From: a virus
Virus record (IMG/VR): IMGVR_UViG_3300010354_000006
Length of the DNA: 45,220 nt
Strand: one strand, 5' to 3'
Shown in pieces: positions 8,061 through 45,220 of this stretch. The notes beneath the pieces were generated by a model. That model was not told the origin of the DNA. It saw only the letters and a program-made list of their open reading frames with translations, and did no database searches. A program made the position numbers and the translations under genes. Numbering within the stretch: the first letter of the stretch is position 1; every line of letters begins with the position of its first letter.

Positions 8061-8477
8061 ATGACGATTTTAAACCGCCAATTAACACCTAACATAAGCC
8101 TCTATGAGCTTCTTTACACCCCAACTGTAAACAAAGCTGAAATAGCCCCGCTCATTGAGCAGGCTTGGAGTATTGAGGTAGATAGAAACTTAACTAAACT
8201 TGCTACTGCTTTGCAGATCATTAGAGATTATTTTGGTAAACCTTTAATCATCACGAGTGGCTTTAGACCTGTAACTTGGGAATTAAAAAGAAATAGAAGC
8301 GGTAAATCCCAACATACTAGCGGACTAGCTGCTGATTTTAGGGTCTCAGGCGTGCCACTTTCAGAAGTCTATGCTTTTGTTAATGCGACTTTTAAAAAAG
8401 GTGGTAGAGCTATAAACCCTGTAGCAAATTTTATTCACTTAGATTTAAGACCAGAATATGCCACTTGGACTTATTAA
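8061..8477 (+). CDS. Peptidase M15 family (LAS-type zinc peptidase), endolysin-like
   Basis: SGFRP, SQHTSGLAADF and FIHLD blocks give the H..D...H zinc-ligand pattern of M15 peptidases. Confidence 0.6.
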   Translation: MTILNRQLTPNISLYELLYTPTVNKAEIAPLIEQAWSIEVDRNLTKLATALQIIRDYFGKPLIITSGFRPVTWELKRNRSGKSQHTSGLAADFRVSGVPLSEVYAFVNATFKKGGRAINPVANFIHLDLRPEYATWTY

Positions 8478-8745: not shown

Positions 8746-9273
8746 TACCAAAGCATAATAATTGATTTTCTTTTTACCAGTGATACCCTTTTGACTTTTG
8801 CCTTCACCAACTTTCTTAACAATTCCGTGCTTTTTTAAAACTAAAAGCTGCGAATGAATCGTGCTATCTATATTATCTAAATTAGTGAGAACAGATTTAA
8901 TCGCTTCCTTCGCATCTGATCTTGTAAACCATGCCCCATTAGCACCTAGCCTGATAATGCAGTCTTTAACTGCTTGGCTTTCAGGTTTTAAAATAGGAGC
9001 TCTTCTGCCCGTCCAAATTGGTAGAATTTTTGGTTCTTTTTTTGGAAGATTTGCTATGTTTGTTTCTTTTCTTTTCTGAGCTTTAGCTTCCTCTGTAAAG
9101 CTTTTAAATCCTACCGCCCTACATAATTCAAGAAATAAACTTTCATCATGTTTAAAAGGATTGCCAATGGATTTTTCTTTCCAGCTTATAATCAAACCAT
9201 AATATTTATGTTCTGATTCAGTGTAATTATCTAAACCCGATACTCTATTCCCGCTTCCTAGCTTCATGCTCAA
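8743..9273 (-). CDS. Hypothetical protein (176 aa), possible winged-helix C-terminal region
   Basis: ORF track; last gene of minus-strand block. Confidence 0.45.
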   Translation of the reverse strand: MSMKLGSGNRVSGLDNYTESEHKYYGLIISWKEKSIGNPFKHDESLFLELCRAVGFKSFTEEAKAQKRKETNIANLPKKEPKILPIWTGRRAPILKPESQAVKDCIIRLGANGAWFTRSDAKEAIKSVLTNLDNIDSTIHSQLLVLKKHGIVKKVGEGKSQKGITGKKKINYYALV

Positions 9274-9310
9274 ATAGGATAGCTTTCTTTTTAATAAAAA
9301 TCAAGGCTTG

Positions 9311-9616
9311 TTACCTTTCTCTCTGTCTTTCTTCTTTTAAAAACTCTTTAAAATTATCCTTAAGCTCATTTAAAGCAGCAATAACCATGCGAAAATTCTC
9401 TTCAATTTTAATTGTTGATTTTTCTAAGCCTTTAATATCTTTGCCCTGTTCATCAGTCCTAACTTCTAAAGCTAAAATCTTTTTATCTAAAACTTTTAAT
9501 TGTGGCTCTATGACTAAGTTGTAAAAAATAATAAGTACAGTTAATTCACCACCAATGATTGAACCAACAAGCATTAACAATTCATAGGATTTAAAGATGT
9601 ACTCTGTTTCCGTCAT
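9311..9616 (-). CDS. Membrane-anchored coiled-coil protein (101 aa)
   Basis: N-terminal hydrophobic helix then charged helical region. Confidence 0.45.
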   Translation of the reverse strand: MTETEYIFKSYELLMLVGSIIGGELTVLIIFYNLVIEPQLKVLDKKILALEVRTDEQGKDIKGLEKSTIKIEENFRMVIAALNELKDNFKEFLKEERQRER

Positions 9617-10449
9617 TTTAATACTACAGTAACACCGATTTGCTCTTCTGCTTTACCCGATAAGAAAACTTTTAATAAACCGCCTTCAACTTTAACTAAA
9701 TAATTTAAATTCTCAGGATTAACAGGTAATGAAGCACCATTCGTGTTAGACTTTATTCTGTTTTCGCCTAAAAGATTTTGTATTAAGACTCTCAGCTCAG
9801 CATCAAAAAAAGTACCTTGAGACCCCATAGCTGTAATTTGAATTAAAGCTTTGTAGTTAGACTGCTTTAATTCAAATGCTGCTACTTGGGTAAGCTCGCT
9901 GCTAATTAAAATTGTTTCTTTTGTCGGATATTCAGCACCATCTTTACCCTTTTCGCCTTGCTCGCCCTTCTCCCCTTTCTCGCCCTTTAAATCCCCTAAA
10001 TTATTTTTCCATTCTTCAAATAAAGAAGCTAATTCTTTTTTCGCAAAATCATAATCAAATTCTGCATTTAAGCCATCTTTACCATTAATGCCATCTTTAC
10101 CATCTTTACCATTAATGCCATCTTTACCATTTTTGCCATTAACACCATTCTTGCCATCAAGACCATTCAAGCCATCTTTGCCATCAAGTCCGTTTAAACC
10201 ATCCTTGCCATCAAGTCCGTTTAAACCATCTTTGCCATCAGCTCCATTTAAGCCAGCTTCCCCTTGCTCGCCCTTGTCGCCTTTTTGACCCTTGAGCTTA
10301 TCTACTTTTTTCGCTAAAAGCTTTTCAACTTCTTGATTGAAAACGTCTAAAACCCTTTCTTTTAAAGGCTCTTTAAATTCTTCGCTAAATAGTTCACCTA
10401 TTTGAACTAGTCTGTTTTCTATTTTTGCTGCACCCGCTCCGCCTAACAT
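9613..10449 (-). CDS. Collagen-like repeat protein (Gly-X-Y), probable tail fibre
   Basis: Long run of G-X-Y triplets (GKDGLNGLDGKDGLNGLDGK...) encoded by tandem DNA repeats at about 10080-10260. Confidence 0.65.
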   Translation of the reverse strand: MLGGAGAAKIENRLVQIGELFSEEFKEPLKERVLDVFNQEVEKLLAKKVDKLKGQKGDKGEQGEAGLNGADGKDGLNGLDGKDGLNGLDGKDGLNGLDGKNGVNGKNGKDGINGKDGKDGINGKDGLNAEFDYDFAKKELASLFEEWKNNLGDLKGEKGEKGEQGEKGKDGAEYPTKETILISSELTQVAAFELKQSNYKALIQITAMGSQGTFFDAELRVLIQNLLGENRIKSNTNGASLPVNPENLNYLVKVEGGLLKVFLSGKAEEQIGVTVVLK

Positions 10450-10453
10450 GCTA

Positions 10454-10615
10454 ATTTAATCCTTTTAATTGATTTAGTATTGCCTCTGTCTCTTCTATTT
10501 CAGAATTTAATTTGAGAATAGCGTCAATAGCACCCTCTGTTTCTAGAATAACTAACTTCCTGTTTAATGTTTGAAGCTTGTTTTCTGTTAATTTAATTAA
10601 ATCTAAAATCGTCAT
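10454..10615 (-). CDS. Small coiled-coil protein (53 aa), missed by the ORF track
   Basis: ATG overlaps the TGA of the upstream 546-aa gene (ATGA coupling). Confidence 0.3.
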
Positions 10616-12252
10616 ACTAAAACTATAAGCTCCTGCATTTTTGTACTCAAATGTGATTTCAACAAAACCACATCGTATAAGTCAGTGCCATCTATAGCTA
10701 CATAAGCCGCCATTCTATTTCCTACTGCTGCCGTACCAGCTTGAATATCATCTGTCGGTGTGTAGGGAGATAAAACTCTGTTCTTTGCATCGAACCTAAA
10801 AATTTGATTAATTGCAGAAGCTACATAAGCATTAATGTACGTGAACCTACCTTCTCCATTAAATGGGGAATAAGCGGCACTTGCACCCGTTCCCATCGTA
10901 ATTACGTTGCCGTCATAAACTACTGCACCAGTCCATAAACCAGTCGTACCGCCTGCTATGTCAAGCAAGTCTAGTGTTACTGCACTTCCTCTGAAAAAGA
11001 ATAAATGCGAATGTCTAGCGTTTTTTTGTGTGTCTGGTTGGATTCCATACGCAGGACACCAAATGTTCCCAGCAGCATTAGCCGCAGGAGCAGTACCAAA
11101 AAGAGTTGTACTCCAAGTGTTCGCAGCTAAGTTAGTTGTTCCGTTGTTGTAAGCGGCATCGTTATAATTGTACGTATAAGTAGTTGTGTTTGCAGCAGTT
11201 CTTAAAACTAACAAGTTAGGATACTCTATGACATATTTAGCCGTGCTTGAAGGTTGAACAGTCCAGTTTGCACCTAATGTGTAGACAGGACTTGCACCTG
11301 CAGTATGCGAAGCAATATACGCTCTTTGATTGATTGCTGTTGGATTCGTTGTATCTTGAACTATTCTGATCTGAAAATTTCTATACTCATTCGCTAAAAC
11401 TCCAGAATCCCCACCACTAGCTTGACCAGTAATCGTGTTTGCGGTAGTTGCTGTTGCTGTTAGAGCTTTTCTTGACACTAAATTATTATCATACTCAAAA
11501 GTACCTTTGATGAATCCTTCACCTGGATTATGGTTATAAGGAGTGTATTGCTCGTCTAAAGCCACTATAGCCGAATCAGTCGCAGGAGTAGGAAGCCCAG
11601 CAGTTCCACCATTCGCTAGAGTGTTTGCAGCAACTTCGAAACTTCTAAAAGAAGTAGCCACTATAGCACCAGCACTTAGCATAAAAACTCTGCCAGCTAA
11701 AATCTCATACAAGTCTCCATTAGCTGGAGTGAATGTAAGTGCATTATCAAGTATAAAAGTTGGGGTTGTTCCTGCTGTGTTCGCTACAATAAATCTTTCT
11801 TCTACTTTTCCAGCAGCTCTGCCAATAATTCTAATTTTAAAACCATAGTCTCCAGAACCACCACGATTAGCAAGCATGTTAGCTCCTACCGCAGTAATTA
11901 CAGTTGATGTAGGAATACTTGTAGTAGTAGCTCCTGTTGTGATTGTTCCTTTAAGTCCTTGAGATGGAGCAAACACTGTTGCAGCACCAATACCAAAAGT
12001 TCCACCGAGTCCAGGGTTTATCGCTAGTGCTGAACTCTTTGTGATAATGTTAAACCTGTTGAGTGTGGCAGTGGACAGTAAATCATAAACAAAGGGATTT
12101 CTTGAAATGTCTGAGCGTAAATCTGAACATAAGCAAGCACCTGCTGCATGTGCATTTGGAGCTGGAGCTACAGGAATCCACATAGGTCTATCTATTACTT
12201 TTTTAAAATTGTTTGCCATTAACTTATTCTTCCTCTCACTATTTGAGACCAA
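10612..12252 (-). CDS. Putative virion structural protein, Gly/Thr/Ala/Asn-rich (fibre or receptor-binding-like)
   Basis: Composition and position among fibre genes; probable true start at internal MANNFKK. Confidence 0.45.
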   Translation of the reverse strand: MVSNSERKNKLMANNFKKVIDRPMWIPVAPAPNAHAAGACLCSDLRSDISRNPFVYDLLSTATLNRFNIITKSSALAINPGLGGTFGIGAATVFAPSQGLKGTITTGATTTSIPTSTVITAVGANMLANRGGSGDYGFKIRIIGRAAGKVEERFIVANTAGTTPTFILDNALTFTPANGDLYEILAGRVFMLSAGAIVATSFRSFEVAANTLANGGTAGLPTPATDSAIVALDEQYTPYNHNPGEGFIKGTFEYDNNLVSRKALTATATTANTITGQASGGDSGVLANEYRNFQIRIVQDTTNPTAINQRAYIASHTAGASPVYTLGANWTVQPSSTAKYVIEYPNLLVLRTAANTTTYTYNYNDAAYNNGTTNLAANTWSTTLFGTAPAANAAGNIWCPAYGIQPDTQKNARHSHLFFFRGSAVTLDLLDIAGGTTGLWTGAVVYDGNVITMGTGASAAYSPFNGEGRFTYINAYVASAINQIFRFDAKNRVLSPYTPTDDIQAGTAAVGNRMAAYVAIDGTDLYDVVLLKSHLSTKMQELIVLV

Positions 12253-12632
12253 GCAGTTCTTGACCCTGCATAGTTTTGAACGTCTGCGGTATAACCACCT
12301 ATGTTCGTTTGGTTTGTTAAAGTTGTTACAGTGGTTACAGTACCGATAGTATTAATCACTGCCACTCTAATCGCATTAATAGTTCTGTCTAAATAGTTAG
12401 GATATTGAAGAAACTGGGCTATGGTTTTAAGCCATGTTTCTACCCCGTTTACGATAACCTCTAAAGGTGAAGTATTGGTAATGTTTACGGGTATTGGGTT
12501 AGCAGTAGAAATATCATTAGCTACACCATCTTCACCAATAGATATTTTTACACGTTGATATTTAACTCCTGCGACTTCATCAGCCGCTATCTGTGTTCCT
12601 GAACCCTCGGTAATCGTTACGTTATCTGCCAT
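12219..12632 (-). CDS. Hypothetical structural protein (137 aa)
   Basis: ORF track. Confidence 0.4.
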   Translation of the reverse strand: MADNVTITEGSGTQIAADEVAGVKYQRVKISIGEDGVANDISTANPIPVNITNTSPLEVIVNGVETWLKTIAQFLQYPNYLDRTINAIRVAVINTIGTVTTVTTLTNQTNIGGYTADVQNYAGSRTAWSQIVRGRIS

Positions 12633-12772
12633 GTTAATTTGTGTAAGTTAAAGCCAATAAAAGCCCCATTGATTGCCCTGCTAAAGATGGAGTTTCCCCT
12701 GTTACGGCTTGCTCAATCATTAAATCCAATTCTAGGTCTAAACTATTCCCCATTACTTTAAGTTTACTCTAT

Positions 12773-13555
12773 ATGTCTTATAATAAGAACATGAGTTTAT
12801 CTAACCTGTTAGACAAGATAAAAAAAATCCCAGTTCTTAAGAAAAACGAAGAAGAAGAGTTGGCTTCTTGGTTTAATTCCAATGAATTAGCAAGACCAAT
12901 TTATGAAAAGATTTTAATTTATCATAACTTAAGATTGGCTAGGCATATTGCAAATAGATTTATAGACAGGGGTTATGAGCTAGAAGATTTAATTTCAGAA
13001 GCTGTTACAGGTTTAAAGCGTGCTGCTGAAAAGTTTAATCCAAAACTAGGCTATAGATTTAGCACTTACGCTGGGCAATGGATTAACCAACGAATCCAAA
13101 AGTTTATTCAAACTTCTTCAACGATTAAAATTCCCGTATTGAAATATTACGCAATTCAAGAGCTGCATAGCCTACTTAATGTTGAACCACTAGAGACTAT
13201 TAGAGAAAAATTAAAGCTTTCAAAAAATCAATTTAATAAATTATACCAAGCCTACTCAAGCCAATTAGTTGAGTCTATAGATGTACCTTTGAATGACCAT
13301 GAATTAATTAAAGAAAGTATCCCTTTTGCCTCAAAAGAATATGATGATCTTTCGGAAAATTTAGAATACTTCTTATCTCAAATCCCCAAAGATGAATACC
13401 CTATAGTCCTAAGTTATCTAAATCAAGAGTTTACTAAAAATAAACTATGCGAAATTTATAACTTAACCTTTATTGAATTAAATCAAATACTGAACCGCAA
13501 TGTAACCTTCTTAAAAGAATCTTTGCGAGGGGATTACGAAGCCTTAAGACTTTGA
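12773..13555 (+). CDS. Sigma-70 family RNA polymerase sigma factor
   Basis: Region 2 signature ...AAEKFNPKLGYRFSTYAGQWINQRIQKFI... (FSTYA.WWI.Q consensus) and a C-terminal helix-turn-helix-like segment. Confidence 0.75.
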   Translation: MSYNKNMSLSNLLDKIKKIPVLKKNEEEELASWFNSNELARPIYEKILIYHNLRLARHIANRFIDRGYELEDLISEAVTGLKRAAEKFNPKLGYRFSTYAGQWINQRIQKFIQTSSTIKIPVLKYYAIQELHSLLNVEPLETIREKLKLSKNQFNKLYQAYSSQLVESIDVPLNDHELIKESIPFASKEYDDLSENLEYFLSQIPKDEYPIVLSYLNQEFTKNKLCEIYNLTFIELNQILNRNVTFLKESLRGDYEALRL

Positions 13556-14172: not shown

Positions 14173-14420
14173 TTCAACCCTTCTAACGCTGCTACCAAAG
14201 CGTTTTTTAAAGTCTCAGGGATTTTACCTGTTTGAAGATCTAACTCAACCTGAGCTTTAATCAGAGACAGATCTTCTTCCGTCAAACCTTCATCATCCAA
14301 GATATAAAGCTCTAAAGCTTTAGACTCTAAAAAATATTTATTCGCTATGTCGAAAAGTGGCGTACCGATTAAAGTCCTTACCAAATTTTTCATTCTAATT
14401 CTATATAACCCTTCTGTCAT
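14169..14420 (-). CDS. Hypothetical protein (83 aa)
   Basis: ORF track. Confidence 0.4.
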   Translation of the reverse strand: MTEGLYRIRMKNLVRTLIGTPLFDIANKYFLESKALELYILDDEGLTEEDLSLIKAQVELDLQTGKIPETLKNALVAALEGLK

Positions 14421-16105
14421 AATAAACCTAAAGCTCCGTTATCATTTAAACTCAACAATGTACTTGATAAAGCCATTCCTACGTACTCCCTTTGAGAGCC
14501 AGATAAACCTAAACCGCCATTAGGGCTTACGTGGTAAGCTTGTCCTGGGATTAGTCCAGAAGCTACCTGAGTACTATAACCCGAGTACATTGAGGATAGA
14601 TTAACTTTTTTTGTCTGCCCCGTAGTTCCAGATTCTGCTGCTATACCTACAGGTAAAGGGTTTGGCAGTACCCTGTTCCCGTAAACATATAATACGGAGA
14701 ACTGAACTGTAGAGCCAAATGTATTATTAATTACGACAAGTATAGGTGTATTAACCGCTCCGTTTTTAACTATGTAGTTTTTACTGTATGATTGGTAAGA
14801 ACCAAATCCGAAAGAGGATACATTGGAATAATAGTTTTGCGAAAAACTTTTTAGTTGTCTCTGCCCTATTCTTGTTACATCTAACAGTAGAGAATTTCTA
14901 TAAATTAAATCCCCGTTTATATTAAGCCTCCAGCCAGCATTAGCCAGAACAGTAGCATCAGGAAATCCGAAACTGTTCTGTCCATCTACTTCTGTAATAG
15001 TAGTTGAATTTACTGTAACTAAACGGGATTGAACACCTCCAGACTGCCCTAGAAATAAATATAGTCCTGAACTTATAGGTTCTACACTAAAACGTCCGTT
15101 AGCATCAGTTCCATAATATAAGTATTCTGCACCAGACCCTGAAAAAGCGGTGCCTGTAATGCCTCGACATAGTATAGCGGTGTCAGTGGATCCGCCTTTG
15201 CGATAACCAAAAAAGCAATTGTTGTTAGTTACATCGTGATAAAACCCTGTATCTTCAGTCGTAGCGGTCTGCCCGTTGTCTGTACCTACTCCAAGTACAG
15301 ACCCAAAAGTCATAGTAGTACCTGATACAGTACCTAAACATGCCTCGTAAGAAGAAGATCCAGCACTGTCTGTCGAATAATAAATAATGTGTTGCCCAGA
15401 TATAGTATCTACAGATAAACCTCTAATCCTACCTCTATCGTTAGTGCTTCCAGAGGCTACTATGTTGTTAGCTGAACCTACTGATATAGAAGTACCTGTT
15501 AAAGTTAAAACTCTTGTCTGTAAAGATGGGCTATCTGATCTAGCATAAACCGCTACTGCAACAGTCCCTGAATGTTTATTTATGCCGAAAGAAGTATTTC
15601 CTGAAGCTGTATTAGATACGTTAGTTGCTACCGATACCGCTGAGCCTACTGTAGGGTTAGCCCCAGATACGTCTATAGCTAAAGCACTTAGTGTATTTGT
15701 TGCTGATCTATACAGCAAAACTGCTGTAGAAGCACCTACTTCAATAAGCTTAGAGCCTAAAGGGGCTGTACCCCACGCTATACCTGTAGCTAATTCTGTA
15801 CTCCAAGTAATATCGCCTGTATTGGGATTTACAGCACCAGTTTTGATAAAGATATTCGTCCCGTTAGTATAAGCGTAAACAAGCTTATTGGTTGTTTCAT
15901 GGAAGCATATAGCACCTTTACCAGTGAATGACGGGAATAGTCGTAAATCTGCAAGTAGATCACCGTTGAGCGGTCTGCCTACTGGAGTTTTAAAAACTTG
16001 TCCATTAGCAGATAAAATTAAAGAATCCCCAGTGTTTACGTTTTCCCCTAGTACGAAATTATGCGAAGTTTTTCCGCTGCTGAATAAATCACTTGCACTT
16101 GCCAT
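14417..16105 (-). CDS. Putative tail fibre / tail spike-like protein (562 aa), Ser/Thr/Gly-rich
   Basis: Composition and position. Confidence 0.45.
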   Translation of the reverse strand: MASASDLFSSGKTSHNFVLGENVNTGDSLILSANGQVFKTPVGRPLNGDLLADLRLFPSFTGKGAICFHETTNKLVYAYTNGTNIFIKTGAVNPNTGDITWSTELATGIAWGTAPLGSKLIEVGASTAVLLYRSATNTLSALAIDVSGANPTVGSAVSVATNVSNTASGNTSFGINKHSGTVAVAVYARSDSPSLQTRVLTLTGTSISVGSANNIVASGSTNDRGRIRGLSVDTISGQHIIYYSTDSAGSSSYEACLGTVSGTTMTFGSVLGVGTDNGQTATTEDTGFYHDVTNNNCFFGYRKGGSTDTAILCRGITGTAFSGSGAEYLYYGTDANGRFSVEPISSGLYLFLGQSGGVQSRLVTVNSTTITEVDGQNSFGFPDATVLANAGWRLNINGDLIYRNSLLLDVTRIGQRQLKSFSQNYYSNVSSFGFGSYQSYSKNYIVKNGAVNTPILVVINNTFGSTVQFSVLYVYGNRVLPNPLPVGIAAESGTTGQTKKVNLSSMYSGYSTQVASGLIPGQAYHVSPNGGLGLSGSQREYVGMALSSTLLSLNDNGALGLL

Positions 16106-16852: not shown

Positions 16853-19800
16853 TTAATAGCCTCTCAACTCTGCAAGTTGTTTTTCTCTCAATTTTTTCTC
16901 TTTAGCTGCTCTGTCTTTTTGCTTTGCTTCAATCGCATTTTCATATTGCTTTCTACCAGCAGGACTCCACGCATATAATGTTTTACCAGCGATAGGAATA
17001 TTATTCACTAAAATCCTAGACAAGAAAGGATTATATTCTTCGCCTGTATCTACTGCCTTCCTGTATTCTTTTACATCGGCATCTAACGCATCAAGCCATG
17101 GAGCTGCAGGCATAATAAAGCTTCCAAACCCTGCCGCTAAACCTTGCTTATCTAACTTGTAAAACATATAAGGATTTACTATTGGTATAAATGTTTGAAA
17201 AGCTGCCTCAACCGCTCTCTCTTCTAAAGATTGATATTCTTCGCTTGTTTTTCCTTTGATTATATCTTTAAAATAATTAATTCCATAGTTTGAACCACCA
17301 ACTAAAACACTAAGAGCAATAGCGTTTCTTAGGGATTCGCCTAATTGTTTAGTGTTTTGTTTGTTTAATCCTTTAGTTGCAATAGATTTAATCCCATTTG
17401 CCATACCACTGTAGACTTCATCTTTAGTGAATTGAAGCATTTTTAAACTAAAGCTTTTTAACGCATAAAAGAATCTTAGGTCTGGAGCTTGTAAGTATCC
17501 AGCAGGCATATCGCTTAAAGATAAAACTTGCGTTCCTGAAAGGCGTTCAAATAAAGCAAGCCCAATGCTATCATCGTCATACGCTTCTTTTAAATCTTTA
17601 GTACGAAAAGCTTGTACCATTCTATCGGCTTCATCTACCCCGAACATGCTTTTTAAATAAGAATATTCTTTATCGAACTTCGCACCTTTTTCTTTTGTAA
17701 AAACATTTTTAAAATAATTAAATCCTGCATTTAACTGTGTTTCTTGCATTAATTTATTCGCTGCCCTAAAACCGTTTATCTTCAAAGCAAAATCAACAAC
17801 TTTACGAACCACGGAAGGATTATCAGCATAATCCGCACCGATACGGGCAATGCCTAAGTCTAAGGTTTTTACAGTCTCAGGGTCAAATGATTGCCCTAAA
17901 CCTTTAATAGTATTCAAAATACCATTCCTATAAGCACTAGTGCCAAGCTCCGTAGCCTGTGTTATTGTACTTTGAATATCATTCAGAGCAGTAAGCAATG
18001 CTCCGTCTTTAGCTAAACGAGCAAAATTAGCTGGCTTTTTAGGACCATTAACAAAACGTGCTGTAAGTAAATCCTTAACCTTAACAACTTGTTCACTTGA
18101 GATTTCATTGTTTTGTCTTAGACTATCTGTAAAAGCACCGACACTTGTAGTTAAATCTGCACCATCCGCTCTACCAAAGAATTTACGACTCTCTATGTCA
18201 AAAGTAGAGCGATTAATATAATTCTCTAATACTGTAGCTGGGTCTTCGTATAAGTCAGAAAGAAAACGCTCGTTCCCTTTAGCATCCTTAAAAATAATCC
18301 CTTCCATCTGTTGAGCCAATCCCGATCTAGGTTTTCTGTTAGAAAGTGTTGGGGTGCTGCCTACTCCACCGTAACCTCTTAAAAACTTATTAGTAAACTC
18401 AATTCGCTCTAGCTCCTCAAGTTCACGCCCAAGTTTTTTTCTTTCTTTAGCTAAAGCTGTATCGTATTCTGTCCTTGTTGCTGGATCAGCTTTTAAATCA
18501 TCTGTGATTTTATCTAAATCAAAAAGTGAACGCCAAGTCTCAACGCTATCTTTTTTAACACTTGTTGGGAAATAATTTTCAATAAAACCTACTTCAAGCC
18601 CCGCTTCGGTTTGTTGTGCATAAAGATCATCAAGGACAGGTCTAACCCCTGTTTCGTATAGTTCCGTTAAAGGTTTATTTATTAATTTCTCAAAATCTCT
18701 TGCGGTGTCTTCCGCCTCTAAAAATTTTAAAGGTACTTTAAATATTGGTGGCAGTTCCTTAAACTGTCGCCCTTCTTTATCAATCTTAGATAAGAAAGCC
18801 ATGATTGCATCATGGTCGCCTTTAATTAAATAAGAGTTAAAAATTTTCTTTTCATTTTTGCTTAATAATTTCCCTAACTTGCTGAATAAAGGCATTGCTT
18901 GAGATAAATGTTTATTTGCAATTTTTGAACTTGCAAATTCAAACTTGCGAAGCTGCCCTGCTAAAGATGGGTTAATGTCTCTTAAAGCTGATATTATTGG
19001 TTGTACTAAAGTATTCCATAAGTTCCCCGCATTTTCAGCAGTTTGAATAATTTTGTTTTTAGGTTTTTTAGTTGCAGTTGGCATTTCCACAGAAGCATCA
19101 CTAATGAAAGCTCCAGTATTTTCAACTTCCGCTTTCCCTACTTCACTTTTCATTTTTGCTATTAACGCTGGATGGCGGTACATCGCTTTATACATATCGT
19201 TTAAAGCTTCTTTTTCTAATTCAGCTCTTGAGATTGTTTTTTCTTCGGTCTCTATAATCGGGTTGCGTTCTGCCTTAAGCTTTGCTAACTGAGAATCAAT
19301 TTGATCTAATTCCTCTTTAGCAATCATTCGATCAATTTCGATATCATCAGCATTACGCAAAACAGGAGTCTCTATTCCCATCTTCTCTCTGTATTCTCTT
19401 AAAGCATCTTTCTTAAATTGACGATTTAAAGCTACTTCTTTTTGTTTCTTTAATGCCTCTCTACGCCTATTTAAATAATCTATCTTATCTTTAACTTCCT
19501 GCTCAAGCTTTTGCTGTTGCTCTAATAAAGCTTGTTTCTTGGCTTGAAAGTCAGATACAGCTTGATTTCTATTTGCATTAGTTACACTAAGCCTAGTATC
19601 TACATCTGATCTAGCTGCATTGTATTCGTCATCTAATGCTTTAAGTCTCTGTTCTTTAAGTTGTTGCTTTTGTAATTCTATGTCTTGCAAACGCTTTGTT
19701 TCTACATCTGCTTTTAATTGATTTATTTCAGCTTGCTTTGCTTCTAATGCTTGTTGTTGTTTTGTCTTTACAGTCTCTATTTGCTTTGCTACTGTTTCTT

Positions 19801-22468
19801 GTAGTTTTTTTAATTTCTCTGGGTAAGTTTTATTTTTAAATTTATTTAATTGCTCTTGTATTTTATTTCGTTGTTCCTCTGCTTTTTTTAAAGATGGGTT
19901 ATCTAAAATAGGTTTTAATGATTCTTTTTGCTGTAAAAGAGATTCAAGGTTTGCTTTTTCTTCTTTTAGCCCCGATTCAAGTTTTCCAATCTTTTCTTTT
20001 GCAAAAGATTTAATATTCGCTATCTTTTTTTGAGTTGCTTCTTTTACTTGATATTTATATTTACCAAGTGCAATGTTCGCCGTTTTAATACTTGGGATTG
20101 CATTTAGCTCTTCTTGCGTTAAAGACTCCCCTGATTTACTACGCTTATCTCGTCTTTTTTGTTTTAAAGCATTAACTTTATCTTCTTGTGCTTTTAATTG
20201 TTGCTCTGCTTTAGTTTTTACTACTTCAATTTGACGATTAGCCGTTTCGTTTATTTCTTTTAATTTTTGTGCATAAAGTTTTTTAGAAGCATCTAGTCTT
20301 TTTTTTGTTGCAGTTATTATTTTCTCTGTTTCATCAAATTTCTCTAACGCCCCTTCTTGCAGGAAATCACGTTTAATTTTATTGTAAGCAATATCAGCTT
20401 CCTCAGAAGCCTCTTCTAATTTTTGCAATTCAAGCTTTAAGGCATCAATTTTTTTTGTTATAAAAACTTTAATATTTTCAACCTTAGTTTTAACTTCGGA
20501 ACTTAAATCTTTTTGAAATTTGTTAAATGAAATTTTATAAGTAGGATCAAGTTTATTTAATTGCTGTTCTGCTAATTCTGTTTGCTTTGCCTTTAAACTT
20601 TTTTCAAAATCAGCTTGAGATGCCGTTAGTTTACTAGCGACCTGCTCTTCAGTTTGCTTAACTGCTTGAGAATATTGACCTTCTAGTTTTTGATTGTTTC
20701 TTTCTAAGCTTTGTAATCTATTTTCAAAATATTGCTTAACTCGTTTTGCTTTTTTTTCTTTACTTACCGAGTCTGGTAAGTTATTAATTTCATCAAGCGA
20801 TTTAGAATACTCTGCTTTAGTTTGTTCAATTTCACGTGCGTAAGATTCTTGCTTCTGTTTAAATTTAATATCAAGTTCTGCAATTTTTGTTTGCCTAGAT
20901 TCTTCTAGCTGAGTTTTTAAACTTTCGTATTTAGTATTTGTTTCTTTTTGAAAAAGATTAAATTCTTCTTCGTAATTTCTTTGTGGTGCCGTTGCTGTTT
21001 CTTGGGAAACAGTTTCGGGAGTTTCAGTGATTTCTACAGGCTCCGTCTCAGCTTGTTTTTTAGCACGTTGATAAGAGTCATTAACTTGCTTCTGTTGTTT
21101 AGCTAAATTCTTTTCTTCTAAATCAAATGGCTTAGTTAATGTACGCTCTTGCTTGTCTATATCAGCTTTCTGTTTAAGCAGGTTTTTTGTTTTCTGTTCA
21201 CTTTCTCTTTGGATTTCAGATACTAATTTATCTTGCTCTGTGTCTATCTGCTTGAAAGCTGTTTGCTTTTCAGCTTCGTACATCTCATTTAAAGTAGATA
21301 CATTCTGCCTAGTCTCTTCTTTAAGCCCTAAACGTGTTTGCTCTTCTGCTAATTGCCCTTGCCTTTGTTCTGTCAAAGACCTAGCTTGCATTAAATCAGA
21401 TTCAATCTTTTCGTATTTTAATGCTGCTGCTGCTTTTGCTTCTTCTGCTGCCCTTGCTTCGTTAGCACCTTTAGCCTTGTATGCTTCTACATTACGTCTA
21501 TTAAATGCTCTTTTTGTTTCAGCTATACCCTTTAAAGATTCTTTACTATTGCCCCTAAAGATAAAGCCTTCTTGCCCTTGAGCCATTCTGCCCGCTTCTC
21601 TTAAAGCTTGCTTGCCGTAATTTTTGGTTAGTGCTGCTCCAATACCTTCTATCGCTCCACCAAACGTAGTATCTATAGCTAAATTTAGAGCTAAGTCTTT
21701 AAGGTTAATGTTCCCCTCTTCGTCCATTGAAGCCGAGAGAGACAATGGAGAACCTGCTATTGTGTTAGCTGCTGCACCTGCTATAAATCTTTTAGTTCCT
21801 GCTTGTGCTATAACTTTTTTAGTTGCTTCTCGTGCTGCTGTGCCTGCAATCCCTTTAGCTGTTAAATCTTTAAATATGTTTGCCGCTAAAGCACCTTCGC
21901 TAGCTGCTCCAAAAGCTTTAGCATAAATTGACCCACCTCCGAGTAACCCAACTACTGTACCAAGTCCAGTAGGTAAATCTTGGAATCCTTGCCCTTCTTG
22001 TATCCCTGTAACATCACTTGCTAAATCTTGTATGAATTGACCAGTTTGAGCTAGACCTTGAGATACAGGGTCTAACTCTCTCTTAACCCTCTCCCTGCCT
22101 GCAAAAGTATCCATCATTAATTCTGCTGGAGATGGAATAGCTTTAGATGCTCCGTATAAAGCTTTAGGAGCTTCTAACATTAAAGCTGGAATCTCTGCTG
22201 CTGATTTAAGCCCTGCTGCTATTGTCTTGCCAGCTATAGGAATGCTTTGTATTGCATCTGCTATGGCTTTTTTTGCATAAGCTCCTGAATTGATACGGTC
22301 AGGGGTTAATTTGCTTGCTGCAAATTGTAATTCATCTGGAGTTAATTCACGTCCAATATCGTCTTGATAACGAGTTAAAGCTGCCTCTGTGTATTTAACA
22401 GCCTGATCTTTTAAAAGTGGATTTATACTTTTAGCTTTTAAATCTTCAATAAAATTTTCAATTCCCAT
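16853..22468 (-). CDS. Very large virion protein (1871 aa) with long central coiled coil; internal/ejection protein or tape-measure-like
   Basis: Uninterrupted 5.6-kb ORF; central Lys/Glu/Gln-rich heptad region. Confidence 0.55.
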   Translation of the reverse strand: MGIENFIEDLKAKSINPLLKDQAVKYTEAALTRYQDDIGRELTPDELQFAASKLTPDRINSGAYAKKAIADAIQSIPIAGKTIAAGLKSAAEIPALMLEAPKALYGASKAIPSPAELMMDTFAGRERVKRELDPVSQGLAQTGQFIQDLASDVTGIQEGQGFQDLPTGLGTVVGLLGGGSIYAKAFGAASEGALAANIFKDLTAKGIAGTAAREATKKVIAQAGTKRFIAGAAANTIAGSPLSLSASMDEEGNINLKDLALNLAIDTTFGGAIEGIGAALTKNYGKQALREAGRMAQGQEGFIFRGNSKESLKGIAETKRAFNRRNVEAYKAKGANEARAAEEAKAAAALKYEKIESDLMQARSLTEQRQGQLAEEQTRLGLKEETRQNVSTLNEMYEAEKQTAFKQIDTEQDKLVSEIQRESEQKTKNLLKQKADIDKQERTLTKPFDLEEKNLAKQQKQVNDSYQRAKKQAETEPVEITETPETVSQETATAPQRNYEEEFNLFQKETNTKYESLKTQLEESRQTKIAELDIKFKQKQESYAREIEQTKAEYSKSLDEINNLPDSVSKEKKAKRVKQYFENRLQSLERNNQKLEGQYSQAVKQTEEQVASKLTASQADFEKSLKAKQTELAEQQLNKLDPTYKISFNKFQKDLSSEVKTKVENIKVFITKKIDALKLELQKLEEASEEADIAYNKIKRDFLQEGALEKFDETEKIITATKKRLDASKKLYAQKLKEINETANRQIEVVKTKAEQQLKAQEDKVNALKQKRRDKRSKSGESLTQEELNAIPSIKTANIALGKYKYQVKEATQKKIANIKSFAKEKIGKLESGLKEEKANLESLLQQKESLKPILDNPSLKKAEEQRNKIQEQLNKFKNKTYPEKLKKLQETVAKQIETVKTKQQQALEAKQAEINQLKADVETKRLQDIELQKQQLKEQRLKALDDEYNAARSDVDTRLSVTNANRNQAVSDFQAKKQALLEQQQKLEQEVKDKIDYLNRRREALKKQKEVALNRQFKKDALREYREKMGIETPVLRNADDIEIDRMIAKEELDQIDSQLAKLKAERNPIIETEEKTISRAELEKEALNDMYKAMYRHPALIAKMKSEVGKAEVENTGAFISDASVEMPTATKKPKNKIIQTAENAGNLWNTLVQPIISALRDINPSLAGQLRKFEFASSKIANKHLSQAMPLFSKLGKLLSKNEKKIFNSYLIKGDHDAIMAFLSKIDKEGRQFKELPPIFKVPLKFLEAEDTARDFEKLINKPLTELYETGVRPVLDDLYAQQTEAGLEVGFIENYFPTSVKKDSVETWRSLFDLDKITDDLKADPATRTEYDTALAKERKKLGRELEELERIEFTNKFLRGYGGVGSTPTLSNRKPRSGLAQQMEGIIFKDAKGNERFLSDLYEDPATVLENYINRSTFDIESRKFFGRADGADLTTSVGAFTDSLRQNNEISSEQVVKVKDLLTARFVNGPKKPANFARLAKDGALLTALNDIQSTITQATELGTSAYRNGILNTIKGLGQSFDPETVKTLDLGIARIGADYADNPSVVRKVVDFALKINGFRAANKLMQETQLNAGFNYFKNVFTKEKGAKFDKEYSYLKSMFGVDEADRMVQAFRTKDLKEAYDDDSIGLALFERLSGTQVLSLSDMPAGYLQAPDLRFFYALKSFSLKMLQFTKDEVYSGMANGIKSIATKGLNKQNTKQLGESLRNAIALSVLVGGSNYGINYFKDIIKGKTSEEYQSLEERAVEAAFQTFIPIVNPYMFYKLDKQGLAAGFGSFIMPAAPWLDALDADVKEYRKAVDTGEEYNPFLSRILVNNIPIAGKTLYAWSPAGRKQYENAIEAKQKDRAAKEKKLREKQLAELRGY

Positions 22469-26167: not shown

Positions 26168-26530
26168 TTACTTACCCCTTCTAAATTTATTATAAAATCG
26201 TGGATCTACGCCTTGCGGTGTTGGGGTTTCATCTTTTAAGATTTGCCCCGTTCCCATATCCATAAAATAATTTCCTACCCAATCCCTGTTTGGCATTCCT
26301 TCTTTCCAATACTTAGACTGCCTAGAGAAAGTTTCATGGTTGGGTAATTTATATTCATCAGTAAAGTGCATTTGATTGTCATAGGCACTAACGTCTTGAT
26401 TTGATTTACCTTTTAAAATTTCATTTTCAAAATAACCTTGCATATCGTAATCGTCAGAAAGAGGAACACCAAAAGCCTTAGCCCATGTATCAAAAAGGTA
26501 TTTTTTTATTTCATCCCTTTTGTTTACCAA
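26168..26530 (-). CDS. Hypothetical structural protein (120 aa)
   Basis: ORF track. Confidence 0.4.
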   Translation of the reverse strand: MVNKRDEIKKYLFDTWAKAFGVPLSDDYDMQGYFENEILKGKSNQDVSAYDNQMHFTDEYKLPNHETFSRQSKYWKEGMPNRDWVGNYFMDMGTGQILKDETPTPQGVDPRFYNKFRRGK

Positions 26531-27234
26531 TTCCTATCCCTTGATCTAACTCTAAATTTCCTACGACCTTTAATCTTTAAATTAAACTTGTTTTTAATAA
26601 TTGCTTTATTTAATGCCTCTTTTGCATCCATATCTAAAAGCTGTCTCCATTCAGGATCGCCTTTAGTTTTTCTTAACCATGCGTGAGTTGCCAAAACTAA
26701 AGCCCTTTGAAAGCTAGTAGGGAAAATAATATTATTTGCTATATTGCTCGCTGTAATTCTAAGCATTTCATAATTGTAAAAAGCTTGAATAGTATAAGCC
26801 GCATCAGGAACAGGAGCTAAATTAACTACTCCCTCGTCAATATAATAATAAAGCGGTCTGCCTTGGTTAGTGTTAATAAACTCTAATTCTTTGCCTTCTG
26901 TCTTAGAACGAGGTAAAATCTCAGAATAGTTTTCTCCTGCTTCAACTAAAACTAATTTAGTTATTAACTGAGGATCCCAGCCGCCTACTGGAGCTGTTAA
27001 AACACTATTGCCTAGTGTAGCTGTTAGATTTTCTACAGGATTATAAAAATCATAATCAGAAGAAGATTCTAAAACCCACTGTACCGCTTGGTTTACGGCT
27101 TGAATACCTTTTAAAGCATTGCCGCTTGTCGCAGATGTTGCTTCAATTAAAGGGATTGGAGAATCAGCCTCCAATCCCCTAGCATCGTTTAATAAATTAA
27201 GATACGTTATTGGCAGTTTTTTGCTCCTCTTCAA
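26524..27234 (-). CDS. Putative head-tail adaptor / tail protein (236 aa)
   Basis: Position only. Confidence 0.35.
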   Translation of the reverse strand: MKRSKKLPITYLNLLNDARGLEADSPIPLIEATSATSGNALKGIQAVNQAVQWVLESSSDYDFYNPVENLTATLGNSVLTAPVGGWDPQLITKLVLVEAGENYSEILPRSKTEGKELEFINTNQGRPLYYYIDEGVVNLAPVPDAAYTIQAFYNYEMLRITASNIANNIIFPTSFQRALVLATHAWLRKTKGDPEWRQLLDMDAKEALNKAIIKNKFNLKIKGRRKFRVRSRDRNW

Positions 27235-33759: not shown

Positions 33760-35349
33760 TTAATAATGCAAAAATTTGCGTTTAGGCTTTGAACTTCGAG
33801 TAATAGTATTATTTTTTAACAAAGGAAATACATTGATAAAAGCATATCCGAGAGCATCCATTAAGTGTTCATAAAACCCATCTTTCTTTGGCTCTTCTTT
33901 AATATGATAAGCCCCCTCTTTTGGCATATCATAAACCCAGCCTGTTTCAAAAGTTTCAACGAATAACCCGTTTCGCTCATCTCCATTTTTAGAAATAAAC
34001 ATTCCCCCCGCAGGATTAACGATGACTCCCATAGCATCACCAATTCTACGAGACATTTTATTTCGTATTGCTATAGCTCTATCTGATGGAGCAGATTTTA
34101 TCCCATGAACTTTACGTTTAAAAAACTTTTCTAATATCTTAAATGCAGGCGGTGCAGTACCTTGACTGTTAGCTGATTTTCCTGCTGGGTCTGCATGTAA
34201 AATATATTCGGCATTGGGGAAATGTTTAGCAATATATTCAGCAATTAAAGCCATGAAATTTTCTAACTCCATATCTTCTGCTAAAATCCCATCATGCAAA
34301 ATGCAGCGATTTAAAGAATCCTTCTGCAAAAATACAACTGCTGGATAATGTGAACCAAAGTCAATTCCGATATGTAAAGGTAAATCTTCATCAAATGGAC
34401 AATCTTTATACGGCTCGCAATGAATTTCTCTAGAAAATTCGGGGATTACAGGTTTGCCAACTGGAACGGTAAACTTAAGTTCGTATTCTTGATCCCAAGT
34501 ATATGTATCTACTCCTGATGCTCCAGGAATTGGCTCACCGTTAGGATAAGCTCCATATCGTTCAGCGTGATACCATTCATCGCTACGTTTAAACGGATTA
34601 GCGGTATAATGAAGCTGTAATACAGTTTGGTTATATTCATTGCGATATTTAGCTAAACCAGTCATTAACTTTTCAATTTGTGAATTTTTAGCAATTTTAG
34701 TTACCAACTCTTGGAATTTAGTACCAAAACGTGGAGTTGATACTAAAGCTGCTCTTCCTCCCCCCTCTAAAGCAGGCTTTAAAGCCTTTAAGTTTTGATC
34801 TACGTTTTGTTGAAAAGCTAACTCATCATAAAAAGCATTAGTAATTGTTAGACCTCTGCATTTATCTGAACCTGATGGCAATGCTGTAATTGTTGAACCG
34901 ATTACAGGATTTCGCATTTCGGAGACTCTAATCTCTTTCCCTTCGGTTAATTTAGGATAAGGGAAGCGAAAATCTAACTTATCATATACCGCTTTACATC
35001 TTGTAGCGATAACCTTTTTAGCTCGATCTTCATTTATTGAAACAATGACATTTTCAGAATAAGGAACAAATAAAAGCTGATGTACCATTAATGTACTAAA
35101 AATATGCGTTGCCATCATACGCCTTGTTTTATTAACAACAATAACTTTATTTTTAAAATATTCATCAATTAAATGCTTAATATAAGCATAAGGCGGAAAG
35201 CGTTTTAATGGACTGCCTCTATCCGATTCATCAATCGTAAAGACCTGTTCGACCATCCAAAGAAAAGGGTCATTTGCCCATTGAGTCATTTTTAAAGTAA
35301 TAAACTCTGGGGTAAAATCTTCATTAGTGTATAGTCTATCTAAAATCAT
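33760..35349 (-). CDS. terL: Terminase large subunit
   Basis: Deviant Walker A-like VVNKTRRMMAT, Walker B-like NAFYDELAF, nuclease-domain-like HIGIDFG / ILHADPAG; size 529 aa. Confidence 0.7.
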   Translation of the reverse strand: MILDRLYTNEDFTPEFITLKMTQWANDPFLWMVEQVFTIDESDRGSPLKRFPPYAYIKHLIDEYFKNKVIVVNKTRRMMATHIFSTLMVHQLLFVPYSENVIVSINEDRAKKVIATRCKAVYDKLDFRFPYPKLTEGKEIRVSEMRNPVIGSTITALPSGSDKCRGLTITNAFYDELAFQQNVDQNLKALKPALEGGGRAALVSTPRFGTKFQELVTKIAKNSQIEKLMTGLAKYRNEYNQTVLQLHYTANPFKRSDEWYHAERYGAYPNGEPIPGASGVDTYTWDQEYELKFTVPVGKPVIPEFSREIHCEPYKDCPFDEDLPLHIGIDFGSHYPAVVFLQKDSLNRCILHDGILAEDMELENFMALIAEYIAKHFPNAEYILHADPAGKSANSQGTAPPAFKILEKFFKRKVHGIKSAPSDRAIAIRNKMSRRIGDAMGVIVNPAGGMFISKNGDERNGLFVETFETGWVYDMPKEGAYHIKEEPKKDGFYEHLMDALGYAFINVFPLLKNNTITRSSKPKRKFLHY

Positions 35350-37466: not shown

Positions 37467-38195
37467 TATACCACGATATATAAAAATATACCACTGTTAA
37501 TTTAAATATATCTCAGCGGGACTTTATCCTTCTAGCTCTCACTAGCCTGCATTGAAAACTCTAGTCTTTCGGTTTAATCACATAGATTTTTATGTGGTTA
37601 GTTATTGCTTGTTTAAATCGGTTTAAATCAATTTCTTTTTATTCTTGGGATGATTATGGCTTTAATAAGGTTTTCTTTTAACCTGTGGCAGAATAAAGGG
37701 GTTTTGTGAAGTTTTCTAGTTGGTTGTTAGGTTGGTTTATTACATTGCTGAAATTTGAAATTTTTTATGTGTAGCGAGAGGGGATGCAGTGATAATTTAA
37801 AGGGGTGGCATGGGGTAAAGGATGTTACCCGTAAATACTTTTCTGCTTTTATTACTCTAGAATTACCCTTATACAGTGCCATATTCAAGATAACATTATA
37901 TTATCTTAAGTAAGAACGTGATTGTAGAGCCATTTCAGTATGTTGTTAAAGATAATATACAGAAATTAAGGGGTAGCTACCGAGTATTGGGGGGTATCTT
38001 ATAGTGATTAATGATTGATGACTGATGATCTCTCTCTTATATATTCTTTATCGCTTGCATGTGTTACCCTGCTCGACACATTAACATCATTTCTCATTCT
38101 AAACAAAAACGAGAAACGAATAAAACTCATTCTCAGAAAGCAACTATTCAATTTTACCTACCTACTAGTAGGTAAAAGTTATACCTAACAATTAA

Positions 38196-38288
38196 GCCTA
38201 AAGTGGACTATAGGGTTTAATTAATATAAAGTCTAAAGTGGACTATAGGGTTACAGTAGTAATAAAGCCTATAGTGGACTATAGGGTT
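38196..38288. repeat. Three direct copies of a 22-bp motif GYCTAWAGTGGACTATAGGGTT (38196-38217, 38231-38252, 38267-38288)
   Basis: Read directly; 35-36 bp periodicity; adjacent 12-bp palindrome CCTACTAGTAGG at 38161-38172. Confidence 0.85.
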
Positions 38289-38516
38289 ATAAAGGCTTTC
38301 TAATCAACATTCCTTACTTATCGGCGTAACGATTAAAAACAAGCGAGGCTAGTATTAGTATCTTTTTGTTGTTTTACTTATGACATAAGACAATAGAACA
38401 TTAAATATATTTAATATATCACACCATAACTATATAATCCCTTGAAACCTAGTCCAGTAGTGCATTTCAAGGATTTATAAGTTATTTGATTGATAAAAAA
38501 ATATTTAATAAAAGTG

Positions 38517-40023: not shown

Positions 40024-40707
40024 ATGAATAACTACATAGGTGTCTTAATAAAAAGAAAAAATGGCATATTGACTAATGCTACTTGCTTAGGAATAAGAGA
40101 GTTAATTAAGAACAATAGCCATAACTCGGTATGGTTACAAGCAAATGGTAAATGTTCTTACGGACACTATGCTAAAAAGCATACTGATGGTTATCTATAT
40201 AGCCATGAAGAGTATACGGATAATTGGGATGGTGCAGTATATTCAACAACATTAAAATATTATCCTACCAGTAAACCAGTTCAAATGACAAAATGGCAAC
40301 TAGAAAGAGATCAGATTGAAAAGAAAGAAGATTTACTAGAATCAGCTAAGATATTTTTACGTAACTTGAGCAAAGAATTAATAGAAATAGAAAAATTCAA
40401 TCAGCTAGTATCTGAAGGAATTAAGCAAGATAAAAAAATAACGGGTAGTGAATTAGTATTTTTAGCTGATTACTACAAGGTAGATATTCCCATTAGAACT
40501 CGTGGTTATTATTTAAATAAATTACACAGGGTAACAGCTACTGAGATTAAAGATAAAGAAGTTTCAAGGATTAGTTACCTTGCTGAAGGTAAATTAAATA
40601 GAGATATTCTTTATAGAACATTAGATTTGATCATAAATGAAATGTATCCAGAAGAGGTTACAGTAAAAGAGCAAGAAACTTTCAATCGATTATTTAAAGT
40701 TGCATAG
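40024..40707 (+). CDS. Hypothetical early protein (227 aa)
   Basis: ORF track. Confidence 0.5.
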   Translation: MNNYIGVLIKRKNGILTNATCLGIRELIKNNSHNSVWLQANGKCSYGHYAKKHTDGYLYSHEEYTDNWDGAVYSTTLKYYPTSKPVQMTKWQLERDQIEKKEDLLESAKIFLRNLSKELIEIEKFNQLVSEGIKQDKKITGSELVFLADYYKVDIPIRTRGYYLNKLHRVTATEIKDKEVSRISYLAEGKLNRDILYRTLDLIINEMYPEEVTVKEQETFNRLFKVA

Positions 40708-40776
40708 AACTATCATCAAGCTAACCGCTTCTAGCATATCTAATAGCATATGCTGGAACTGGTTATCACCAGATAA
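40708..40776 (+). ncRNA. Intercistronic element B copy 2: same architecture, stem 40729-40739 / 40748-40758 with compensatory changes
   Basis: TTCTAGCATAT / ATATGCTGGAA (one G-U wobble); CTGGT-TATC-ACCAG. Confidence 0.55.
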
Positions 40777-40791
40777 AGGAAAAAGGAAAAA

Positions 40792-41215: not shown

Positions 41216-41536
41216 ATGACAACAATGGAACACACAATAAAAACAACAATAGAAACTATCGAAGGCGTAAGCGATTACAGCTTATTCGCAGTGGACGAAG
41301 CAATTGACTCGCTGGAATTCCAAAAAAGATTAAGTTATGGCTATGCCAAAAATAAACTTAATTTTGAAATAGATTTAATTAATTACTTTAAAAGTCATCC
41401 AAATTTCAACAATATGTGGAACTGTTATAGCTTTGATGAGGAGGACAGCGAAGAGCCAATTAACGTAGAATTTGAATTTGAATTTGAGCTGGAAGATTTA
41501 CCGCAACACTTGCAAGATGGTTACGAAAGTTTTTAG
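41216..41536 (+). CDS. Small highly acidic protein (106 aa) with EFEFEFELED tract
   Basis: Composition read directly. Confidence 0.45.
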   Translation: MTTMEHTIKTTIETIEGVSDYSLFAVDEAIDSLEFQKRLSYGYAKNKLNFEIDLINYFKSHPNFNNMWNCYSFDEEDSEEPINVEFEFEFELEDLPQHLQDGYESF

Positions 41537-41605
41537 AACTATCATCAAGCTAACCGATTCTAGCACTTACTAATCCAAGTGCTGGAACTGGTTATCACCA
41601 GATAT
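41537..41605 (+). ncRNA. Intercistronic element B copy 3: stem 41558-41568 / 41577-41587 with compensatory changes
   Basis: TTCTAGCACTT / AAGTGCTGGAA (one G-U wobble); CTGGT-TATC-ACCAG. Confidence 0.55.
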
Positions 41606-41618
41606 AGGAAAAAAACAA

Positions 41619-42577: not shown

Positions 42578-42727
42578 CTAGAAACAGATGAGCAAGCTAG
42601 TCAAATATCCTGCAAGCTCGACAGAGCAGCTCGTAAGAGCGGGGGTATTTAAGTTGCGGCTCAACATAAAAACAAATTAAACTAATTACTAAGTTACTTG
42701 TTAGATAAATCTGATATATATATAAGT

Positions 42728-45186: not shown

Positions 45187-45220
45187 GAGAATTAGACCGC
45201 CAAAAATGGCTTCCAGTGGA
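45098..45220. repeat. Second copy of the 123-bp terminal direct repeat
   Basis: Exact match to 1-123. Confidence 0.9.

Follow-up and report, generated by a model that had tools for sequence, protein, structure and literature searches.

Does a phage gene that encodes a collagen-like fibre on tandemly repeated DNA change the length of its fibre? Length-polymorphic collagens whose Gly-X-Y arrays lie on tandem DNA repeats are known from BclA of Bacillus anthracis and from Scl1 and Scl2 of Streptococcus pyogenes, and in BclA the length of the rod sets the length of the filament. The initial annotation of the gene described here had claimed an array that expands and contracts and can alter fibre length or host range. 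The window, by which we mean the whole 45,220-nt stretch of DNA that was analysed (GC about 35%), carries an exact 123-nt direct terminal repeat (1-123 = 45098-45220), which indicates a complete phage genome, circularly assembled or terminally redundant, of about 45.1 kb. It is the genome of an uncultivated freshwater phage, podovirus-like, for which no close isolated relative was found: among isolated phages the terminase has only distant homologues (≤29% identity) and the MCP candidate has none.

The annotated feature coincides exactly with a single minus-strand open reading frame. Its ATG lies 2 nt past the stop of an upstream 54-aa gene, and its own stop overlaps the ATG of a downstream 101-aa gene (ATGA). 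The gene and the parts of its product, from the N-terminus on, are as follows.

9613..10449, minus strand: complete fibre gene, 278 aa, ATG start (ORF list; same gene call on JGI contig Ga0129336_10000078)
10291..10449, minus strand: conserved N-terminal segment, aa 1-53, with AF2 helices of low confidence
10066..10290, minus strand: main collagen run, aa 54-128, 25 uninterrupted Gly-X-Y triplets (triplet count, Pfam)
9985..10065, minus strand: hinge AEFDYDFAKKELASLFEEWKNNLGDLK, aa 129-155, with a predicted helix at aa 133-150 (relatives compared)
9931..9984, minus strand: second collagen run, aa 156-173, 6 triplets, rich in KGE/KGD (triplet count)
9616..9930, minus strand: C-terminal domain, aa 174-278, an eight-stranded beta-sandwich in the predicted model

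The description of the locus as a collagen-like fibre gene is borne out by these 25 + 6 triplets and by a match to the Pfam Collagen family (PF01391, E=1e-14) of 54.5 bits against a gathering threshold of 27.2; Pfam found no domain other than Collagen in the protein. The main run is devoid of proline, with mostly K or L at X and mostly D or N at Y, and its 75 residues would be about 21 nm long if a triple helix forms. An antisense ORF within it (10088-10288, plus strand, MPSLPSLPL...) was rejected as a by-product of the repeats, since the minus-strand frame and its flanking domains are conserved in all relatives.

The gene is indeed built on tandem DNA repeats, as first annotated. Tandem Repeats Finder reports imperfect 9/27-bp units, with a 27-bp period at 10081-10259 (6.6 copies, 81% matches, score 141) and mutually overlapping 9-, 18- and 54-bp solutions that span 10068-10259. 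The extent originally given, about 180 bp, fits the repeats but understates the Gly-X-Y region, which runs over 10066-10290 plus 9931-9984; likewise, the repeat motif given as DGKDGLNGL holds as a Gly-X-Y pattern, but the units on the minus strand read DGLNGLDGK, a circular permutation of it. The two near-identical copies that had been noted are present: the 26-mer TTGCCATCAAGTCCGTTTAAACCATC occurs exactly twice, with starts at 10178 and 10205, where the chance expectation for such an exact 26-mer pair in the window is about 2e-6. They form the following pair.

10178-10204 and 10205-10231: two adjoining 27-bp units, 26/27 identical, each encoding GLN-GLD-GK(D) (repeat finding)

The two units differ solely at the 27th base, a synonymous AAG/AAA change, and represent the most recent duplication or conversion in the array. 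Near-identity is limited to them: the remaining units are imperfect, with 76-81% identity at a 27-nt offset, the longest exact repeat in the array is 26 nt, and synonymous differences separate most units. The 27-bp periodicity is also lineage-specific, reaching 76% at a 27-nt offset in the window and being weaker or of other periods in relatives. A separate 27-bp repeat (21765-21836, 2.7 copies, 77% matches) lies within a 1871-aa gene (16853-22468) that has no family match.

If such an array were prone to slippage, triplet number should vary among related genomes, the comparison that the initial annotation had itself put forward as a check. Eight collagen-type members, including the window, were counted for triplets in the main run and for protein length.

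Window: 25 triplets, 278 aa
L002: 25 triplets, 278 aa
L027: 26 triplets, 278 aa
L028: 26 triplets, 282 aa
L029: 23 triplets, 278 aa
L032: 25 triplets, 278 aa
L033: 25 triplets, 283 aa
L018: 26 triplets, 281 aa

Three near-identical genomes from different samples (window/L003, L002 and L030, 99-100% identical) have 25 triplets each; the genes of L002 and L030 are both 99% identical to that of the window, the L030 contig stopping at aa 213, and the gene on JGI contig Ga0129336_10000078 is identical to it. Five diverged collagen-type relatives (about 50-77% amino acid identity) have 23, 25, 25, 26 and 26 main-run triplets in proteins of 278-283 aa. L027 has gained a triplet in the first run and lost one in the second, so that the total is unchanged, and L029 has two fewer triplets yet five additional residues in its N-terminal segment. 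Repeat number differing among close relatives or populations, as at a hypervariable locus, was not observed. The count is instead almost constant across relatives, a conservation that rests on few lineages because the family is very small (about a dozen sequences). With triplet number nearly constant down to about 50% amino acid identity, expansion and contraction are unsupported at the level of relatives, and the near-invariance of repeat number within this sample is the outcome that the annotation had named as counting against its own claim.

Few properties of the protein are as well conserved as triplet number, even as the sequence of the repeats turns over. The window and L002 genes differ at 12 nucleotides, 5 of which fall within 12 nt (permutation P about 6e-5), at the following position.

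10150..10161, minus strand: 12-nt patch, gene positions 289-300 (window/L002 comparison, permutation test)

In L002, the 24 nt at gene positions 283-306 recur exactly at 319-342, and the patch is the footprint of a conversion between array units that left the length unchanged. A more thorough turnover is found in L018, whose N-terminus and hinge match the window at 81-98% and 90-92% nucleotide identity (the hinge at 96% in amino acids) and whose collagen matches at only 38-57%; its rod is proline-rich and, judged by sequence comparison, is a replaced one. The hinge is 74-96% identical to that of the window in 7 of the 8 relatives compared (44% in L024), and in the diverged clade it is more conserved than the flanking domains.

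The ends of the protein recombine as well. In L028 the N-terminus is 84% identical to that of the window in amino acids but the C-terminal domain, which groups with that of L029, is 32% identical, and the mosaic break falls in the rod or hinge region. The C-terminal domain has been exchanged among lineages, with a junction in or beside the rod, a module mosaicism typical of receptor-binding proteins. The rod and hinge look like an exchange junction between N-terminal (virion-side) and C-terminal (host-side) modules, which matters for host-range prediction from metagenomic phage genomes. In three further relatives, the collagen itself is replaced wholly or partly by sequence that is not Gly-X-Y: L021 (P0004, 339 aa) has a 136-residue stalk and L024 (P0003, 354 aa) a 157-residue stalk, both without Gly-X-Y, and L043, after correction for an apparent frameshift, has 15 triplets, a helical motif and 8 more triplets. 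The P0003 stalk gave sub-threshold matches to amphipathic-helix apolipoprotein models, which suggests a helical stalk.

In assemblies, the fibre genes of relatives are frequently disrupted (L043:220-1127; L042:4001-4233; L017, L036). The frame of L043 shifts near codon 35, codon 45 of L042 is an in-frame stop and the L042 contig terminates in the array, and the L017 and L036 contigs terminate at or within it. Such breaks may be genuine defects or may stem from sequencing or assembly. On another contig, which also bears Phage_portal and Phage_Mu_F genes, a stand-alone 60-aa protein (P0013, L044:1715-1897) resembles the N-terminal segment of the fibre (E=2e-7, 32% identity) and could be either a small module in its own right or a match by chance.

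The replaced stalks allow physical lengths to be compared across different rod chemistries. We estimated rod length by allowing 0.286 nm for each Gly-X-Y residue and 0.15 nm for every other one, with the non-collagen parts assumed to be helical; Ghosh et al. work with 2.9 Å per residue and found 111 residues to measure 30 nm (PMC3368898). Under these assumptions, the first stalk Gly and the C-terminal domain are 28.4-32.3 nm apart in all ten measured members, while the same span comprises between 113 and 192 residues. The collagen-type members, of which seven distinct sequences were measured, have spans of 113-122 residues that are nearly all collagen, L043 has 139 residues in which the collagen is interrupted by the extra helical motif, and L021 and L024 have 180 and 192 residues that are almost all non-Gly-X-Y and presumably coiled coil. 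It is conceivable, and we put it forward tentatively as something short of probable, that the rod is a length-defined spacer in which physical length and not chemistry is under selection, collagen and coiled coil being interchangeable at about 1:2 residues. If this were true, the fibre family would be a natural experiment on virion geometry fixing fibre length, and confirmation of collagen and coiled-coil rods of equal length would make it a compact system for studying geometric constraint on fibre length. The feature worth following is that rod length appears to be conserved whether the stalk is collagen, mixed or non-collagen.

What the two ends of the fibre do has to be read from predicted structure. 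The N-terminal segment, 30-84% identical across the family, is a putative virion-attachment or trimerisation segment in which no resemblance to known tail-attachment domains was found. Its predicted helix at aa 28-52 (AF2, low confidence) ends in ...KLKG where the collagen begins, and a helix ending in ...LKG precedes both collagen runs and looks like a helix-to-collagen junction. The full-length AF2 monomer model is poor (pLDDT 49) and usable for helix positions only. It shows one helix at aa 28-52, another at aa 133-150 and a beta domain beginning at aa 177 (aa 177-277), with pLDDT <50 over aa 48-131.

The C-terminal domain, a putative distal binding knob, was modelled separately by AlphaFold from an alignment of 7 sequences, with a pLDDT of 77. 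The best fold matches of this predicted model are tail fibres, tailspikes and baseplate proteins, with head decoration proteins not among the best, and the predicted domain is similar in fold to the gp9/Kp9-gp42-like tail-fibre beta-sandwich domain, a match to be read with the seven-sequence model in mind and with small beta-sandwiches being common folds. Foldseek with the whole-protein model returned the same set plus T4 gp9, and matches in BFVD included collagen-repeat proteins, major-tropism-determinant N-terminal domain proteins and cyanophage tail-fibre-like proteins. A PDB sequence search with the C-terminal domain returned nothing at E≤10.

Outside its collagen, the fibre protein is, by sequence, almost an orphan. 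PHROG matches to 'tail fiber' and 'collagen like minor tail' families (5073, 8745, 1806; E 1e-19 to 1e-23) are confined to the collagen part (aa ~40-190), and NCBIfam models for Scl1, Scl2 and Lcl score 56.6, 51.7 and 41.7 bits, all below their cut-offs of 400, 325 and 500, on Gly-X-Y sequence only; because both sets of matches span only the collagen part, they are uninformative on the remainder of the protein. Against 50,697 phage records, tblastn with the fibre protein gave no match because the low-complexity filter strips the collagen, the N-terminal, hinge and C-terminal sequences had no homologue, and megablast with 9000-13000 gave no match. An exhaustive HMMER search with the C-terminal domain against 1.84 billion representatives recovered six proteins, of which the repetitive P0006 (1643 aa) was set aside as spurious. 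In word-indexed searches of proteins, the C-terminal domain, an alignment of it and the alignment of the N-terminus each brought up only 1-4 fragments, and scans of IMG/VR and metagenomes contributed a few further loci. Matches in bacterial genome contigs (L039-L041: Lachnospiraceae, Dialister, Gardnerella) were limited to the Gly-X-Y region and its immediate flanks, with the C-terminal domain unmatched, and so give no clue to the host.

The position of the gene bears on where in the virion the product might sit. The relevant genes of the window are these.

8061-8477: M15 endolysin
9311..9616, minus strand: downstream 101-aa protein with a hydrophobic N-terminal segment and a charged tail (ORF list, relatives)
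10451..10615, minus strand: upstream 54-aa gene, part of an exchangeable cassette
10612..12252, minus strand: upstream 546-aa ORF (535 aa as called on the JGI contig)
12219..12632, minus strand: 137-aa gene, first of the cassette
26524-27234: SU10-type adaptor
33760-35349: terminase large subunit

The fibre gene occupies the far end of the late region, away from the adaptor and nozzle genes and beside lysis-type genes. Downstream of it, every relative has a 101-134-aa protein, then a 143-176-aa protein and the convergent M15 endolysin. Its position is kept while the cassette ahead of it is swapped: the 137 + 546 + 54 aa arrangement of the window occurs also in L002 and L032, L018 and L019 have 65 + 280 + 80 aa, and in L023 the gene upstream is 617 aa or longer. 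The freshwater cyanophages MinM1, B3 and B23 encode homologues of the 546-aa protein (60-63% amino acid identity), as does S-CRM01 (39%), and in S-CRM01 the homologue sits between two genes annotated as collagen-repeat 'tail fiber'; no literature on phage MinM1 was found. The three-gene cassette (10612-12632, minus strand) is common to MinM1, B3, B23 and S-CRM01 (with L001, L037 and L038); it has the look of a host-recognition cassette exchanged horizontally, and may be a hint that the host is a cyanobacterium. Pfam, PHROG and NCBIfam returned nothing informative on the neighbouring genes (137, 546, 54, 101, 176, 562 and 240 aa), and a PDB sequence search with the 546-aa neighbour gave only noise.

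Several other features of the window came to light. A Sigma-70 region 2 gene (12773-13555, plus strand; Pfam E=6e-14) lies antisense within the late structural region, is 90% conserved in L027 and L032, and is absent at that position in L018. A 562-aa gene (14417-16105, minus strand) that follows the 1871-aa gene is 94% conserved in L018, but no counterpart could be detected in the corresponding place in L027; the phage group thus has a second RBP-like position that is exchangeable. Just upstream of a DnaB-N/DUF3987 helicase-like gene (42858-44600), at least 7 direct copies of TTTTCCGTC-like 9-mers, plus inverted copies (GACGGAAAA), occur at 42294-42408 and 42548-42588 and are probably replication-origin iterons. 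Between the leftward late and rightward early genes, three tandem 35-nt repeats with the core CTAAAGTGGACTATAGGGTT (38191-38296) may be operator or promoter repeats. An 80-nt element is present at 40705-40784 and 41534-41613 (85% identity between copies), each copy straddling the end of an early gene (40024-40707 and 41216-41536) and the short gap after it, and ending in AGGAAAAA, a ribosome-binding-like motif.

Our preferred explanation, which we consider probable, is that the gene encodes a homotrimeric virion fibre, probably tail-associated, with a collagen rod, a hinge and an exchangeable knob, and with a rod length that is held constant. Frequent slipped-strand events that change triplet number, fibre length and host range, on the pattern of BclA and Scl1/Scl2, would find a substrate in the adjoining 26/27-identical units and the 76-81% periodicity, the conversion patch shows that array units do interact, and the contigs that end within or just before the array (L017, L036 and L042) could be taken the same way. 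Such a contingency-type locus is nevertheless very unlikely given three 99-100% identical populations that do not differ in length, 23-26 triplets and 278-283 aa in relatives down to about 50% identity, the compensated triplet of L027, a longest exact repeat of only 26 nt and synonymous differences between most units.

Constant length is equally what would be expected of a structural spacer elsewhere on the virion, such as a fixed-length head fibre or a neck or collar whisker serving non-specific adhesion or environmental sensing, for which the phi29 head fibres, T4 fibritin and lactococcal collar-whisker proteins are analogues. The very short N-terminus, a gene position that is conserved while adjacent cassettes (the 562-aa gene and the 137/546/54-aa genes) are exchanged, and the roughly 14 kb and antisense sigma-factor gene that separate the fibre gene from the adaptor and nozzle genes all fit such a role. 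The best structural matches are, however, to tail fibres, tailspikes and baseplate proteins and not to head decoration, and the C-terminal domain is swapped between lineages in the manner of receptor-binding domains, so that we regard a head or neck fibre as unlikely. Least credible, to the point that we give it hardly any weight, is a protein that is not part of the virion at all, a secreted or cell-surface collagen mimic or a lysis-associated product encoded beside holin-like and endolysin genes. Translational coupling to the downstream membrane protein, the nearby M15 endolysin and the sub-threshold NCBIfam matches to the Scl1, Scl2 and Lcl adhesins would agree with it, but those matches are far under their cut-offs (57 bits against 400) and confined to Gly-X-Y sequence, a signal peptide or anchor is not evident in the sequence, the fold matches point to tail fibres, and the genome-collection matches (L039-L041) stop at the flanks of the Gly-X-Y region, short of the C-terminal domain.

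A tail-associated fibre, a location to which the fold matches of the predicted model and the late-region gene position lend only indirect support, could work as follows. The helical N-terminus (aa 1-53) would fix the fibre to the virion and align three chains in register. The rod would be a 75-residue, proline-free collagen triple helix (about 21 nm) joined by the conserved 27-residue helical hinge to the 6-triplet collagen segment, and the eight-stranded beta-sandwich (aa 174-278) would be the distal knob of a fibre that takes part in host-surface binding. The 27-bp periodicity of the DNA would be a trace of unit duplication and conversion within the array. Selection would hold the rod, measured between the first stalk Gly and the knob, nearly constant at about 30 nm, while the rod sequence is homogenised or replaced and the N- and C-terminal modules are recombined across it.

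Phage fibres with collagen-like rods were already known in the 1990s, and the gene adds no new principle in this respect. By analogy, the fibre may work like the collagen-like side-tail and tail-fibre proteins of the EPcl type and of PHROGs 5073 and 1806. Such phage proteins were treated by Smith et al. 1998 (as cited in PMC3368898), and EPclA-D are the collagen-like proteins of E. coli O157:H7 prophages, among which EPclA/B are trimeric, hinged, dumbbell-shaped side-tail proteins of collagen and coiled coil (PMC3368898). The window protein shares with the EPcl/PHROG collagen fibres the layout of an N-terminal domain, a Gly-X-Y rod, a short alpha-helical trimerisation or hinge element and a C-terminal globular domain, as well as a collagen rich in charged residues and domains that recombine as modules. 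It is much shorter than these, however, its rod lacks proline, and Pfam finds in it none of the PfN, PCoil and PfC-type domains of EPcl; with no homology outside the Gly-X-Y region to PHROG 5073/1806 or EPcl-type proteins in PHROG, tblastn and Pfam searches, it is not, by sequence, a member of these families beyond that region.

Two other phage fibres resemble it in part. The type I tail fibre gp42 of Klebsiella phage Kp9 (PDB 7xy1) and gp9-type baseplate/tailspike beta-sandwich domains resemble the predicted C-terminal domain in fold, at 10-16% sequence identity only and with no match at sequence level, and gp42, unlike the window fibre, has no collagen rod; the Kp9 preprint does not describe the domains of gp42. 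In S-CRM01, g23 ('tail fiber protein; collagen triple helix repeat domain protein') lies directly downstream of the homologue of the 546-aa protein and has its parts in the same order, a collagen run, an interruption, a short collagen run and a beta-rich C-terminus of about 115 aa. The two proteins align only in their Gly-X-Y parts, and g23 differs in its length of 376 aa, in its G-x-Q/G-P-Q type collagen and in belonging to a T4-like myovirus.

The contrast is sharpest with the length-polymorphic collagens with which we began. Unlike BclA and Scl1/Scl2, the window family has a nearly invariant number of triplets and NCBIfam scores far below the cut-offs, and its protein carries neither an LPXTG anchor nor a C1q-like domain. 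That a fibre gene is built on tandem DNA repeats does not in itself imply variation in length.
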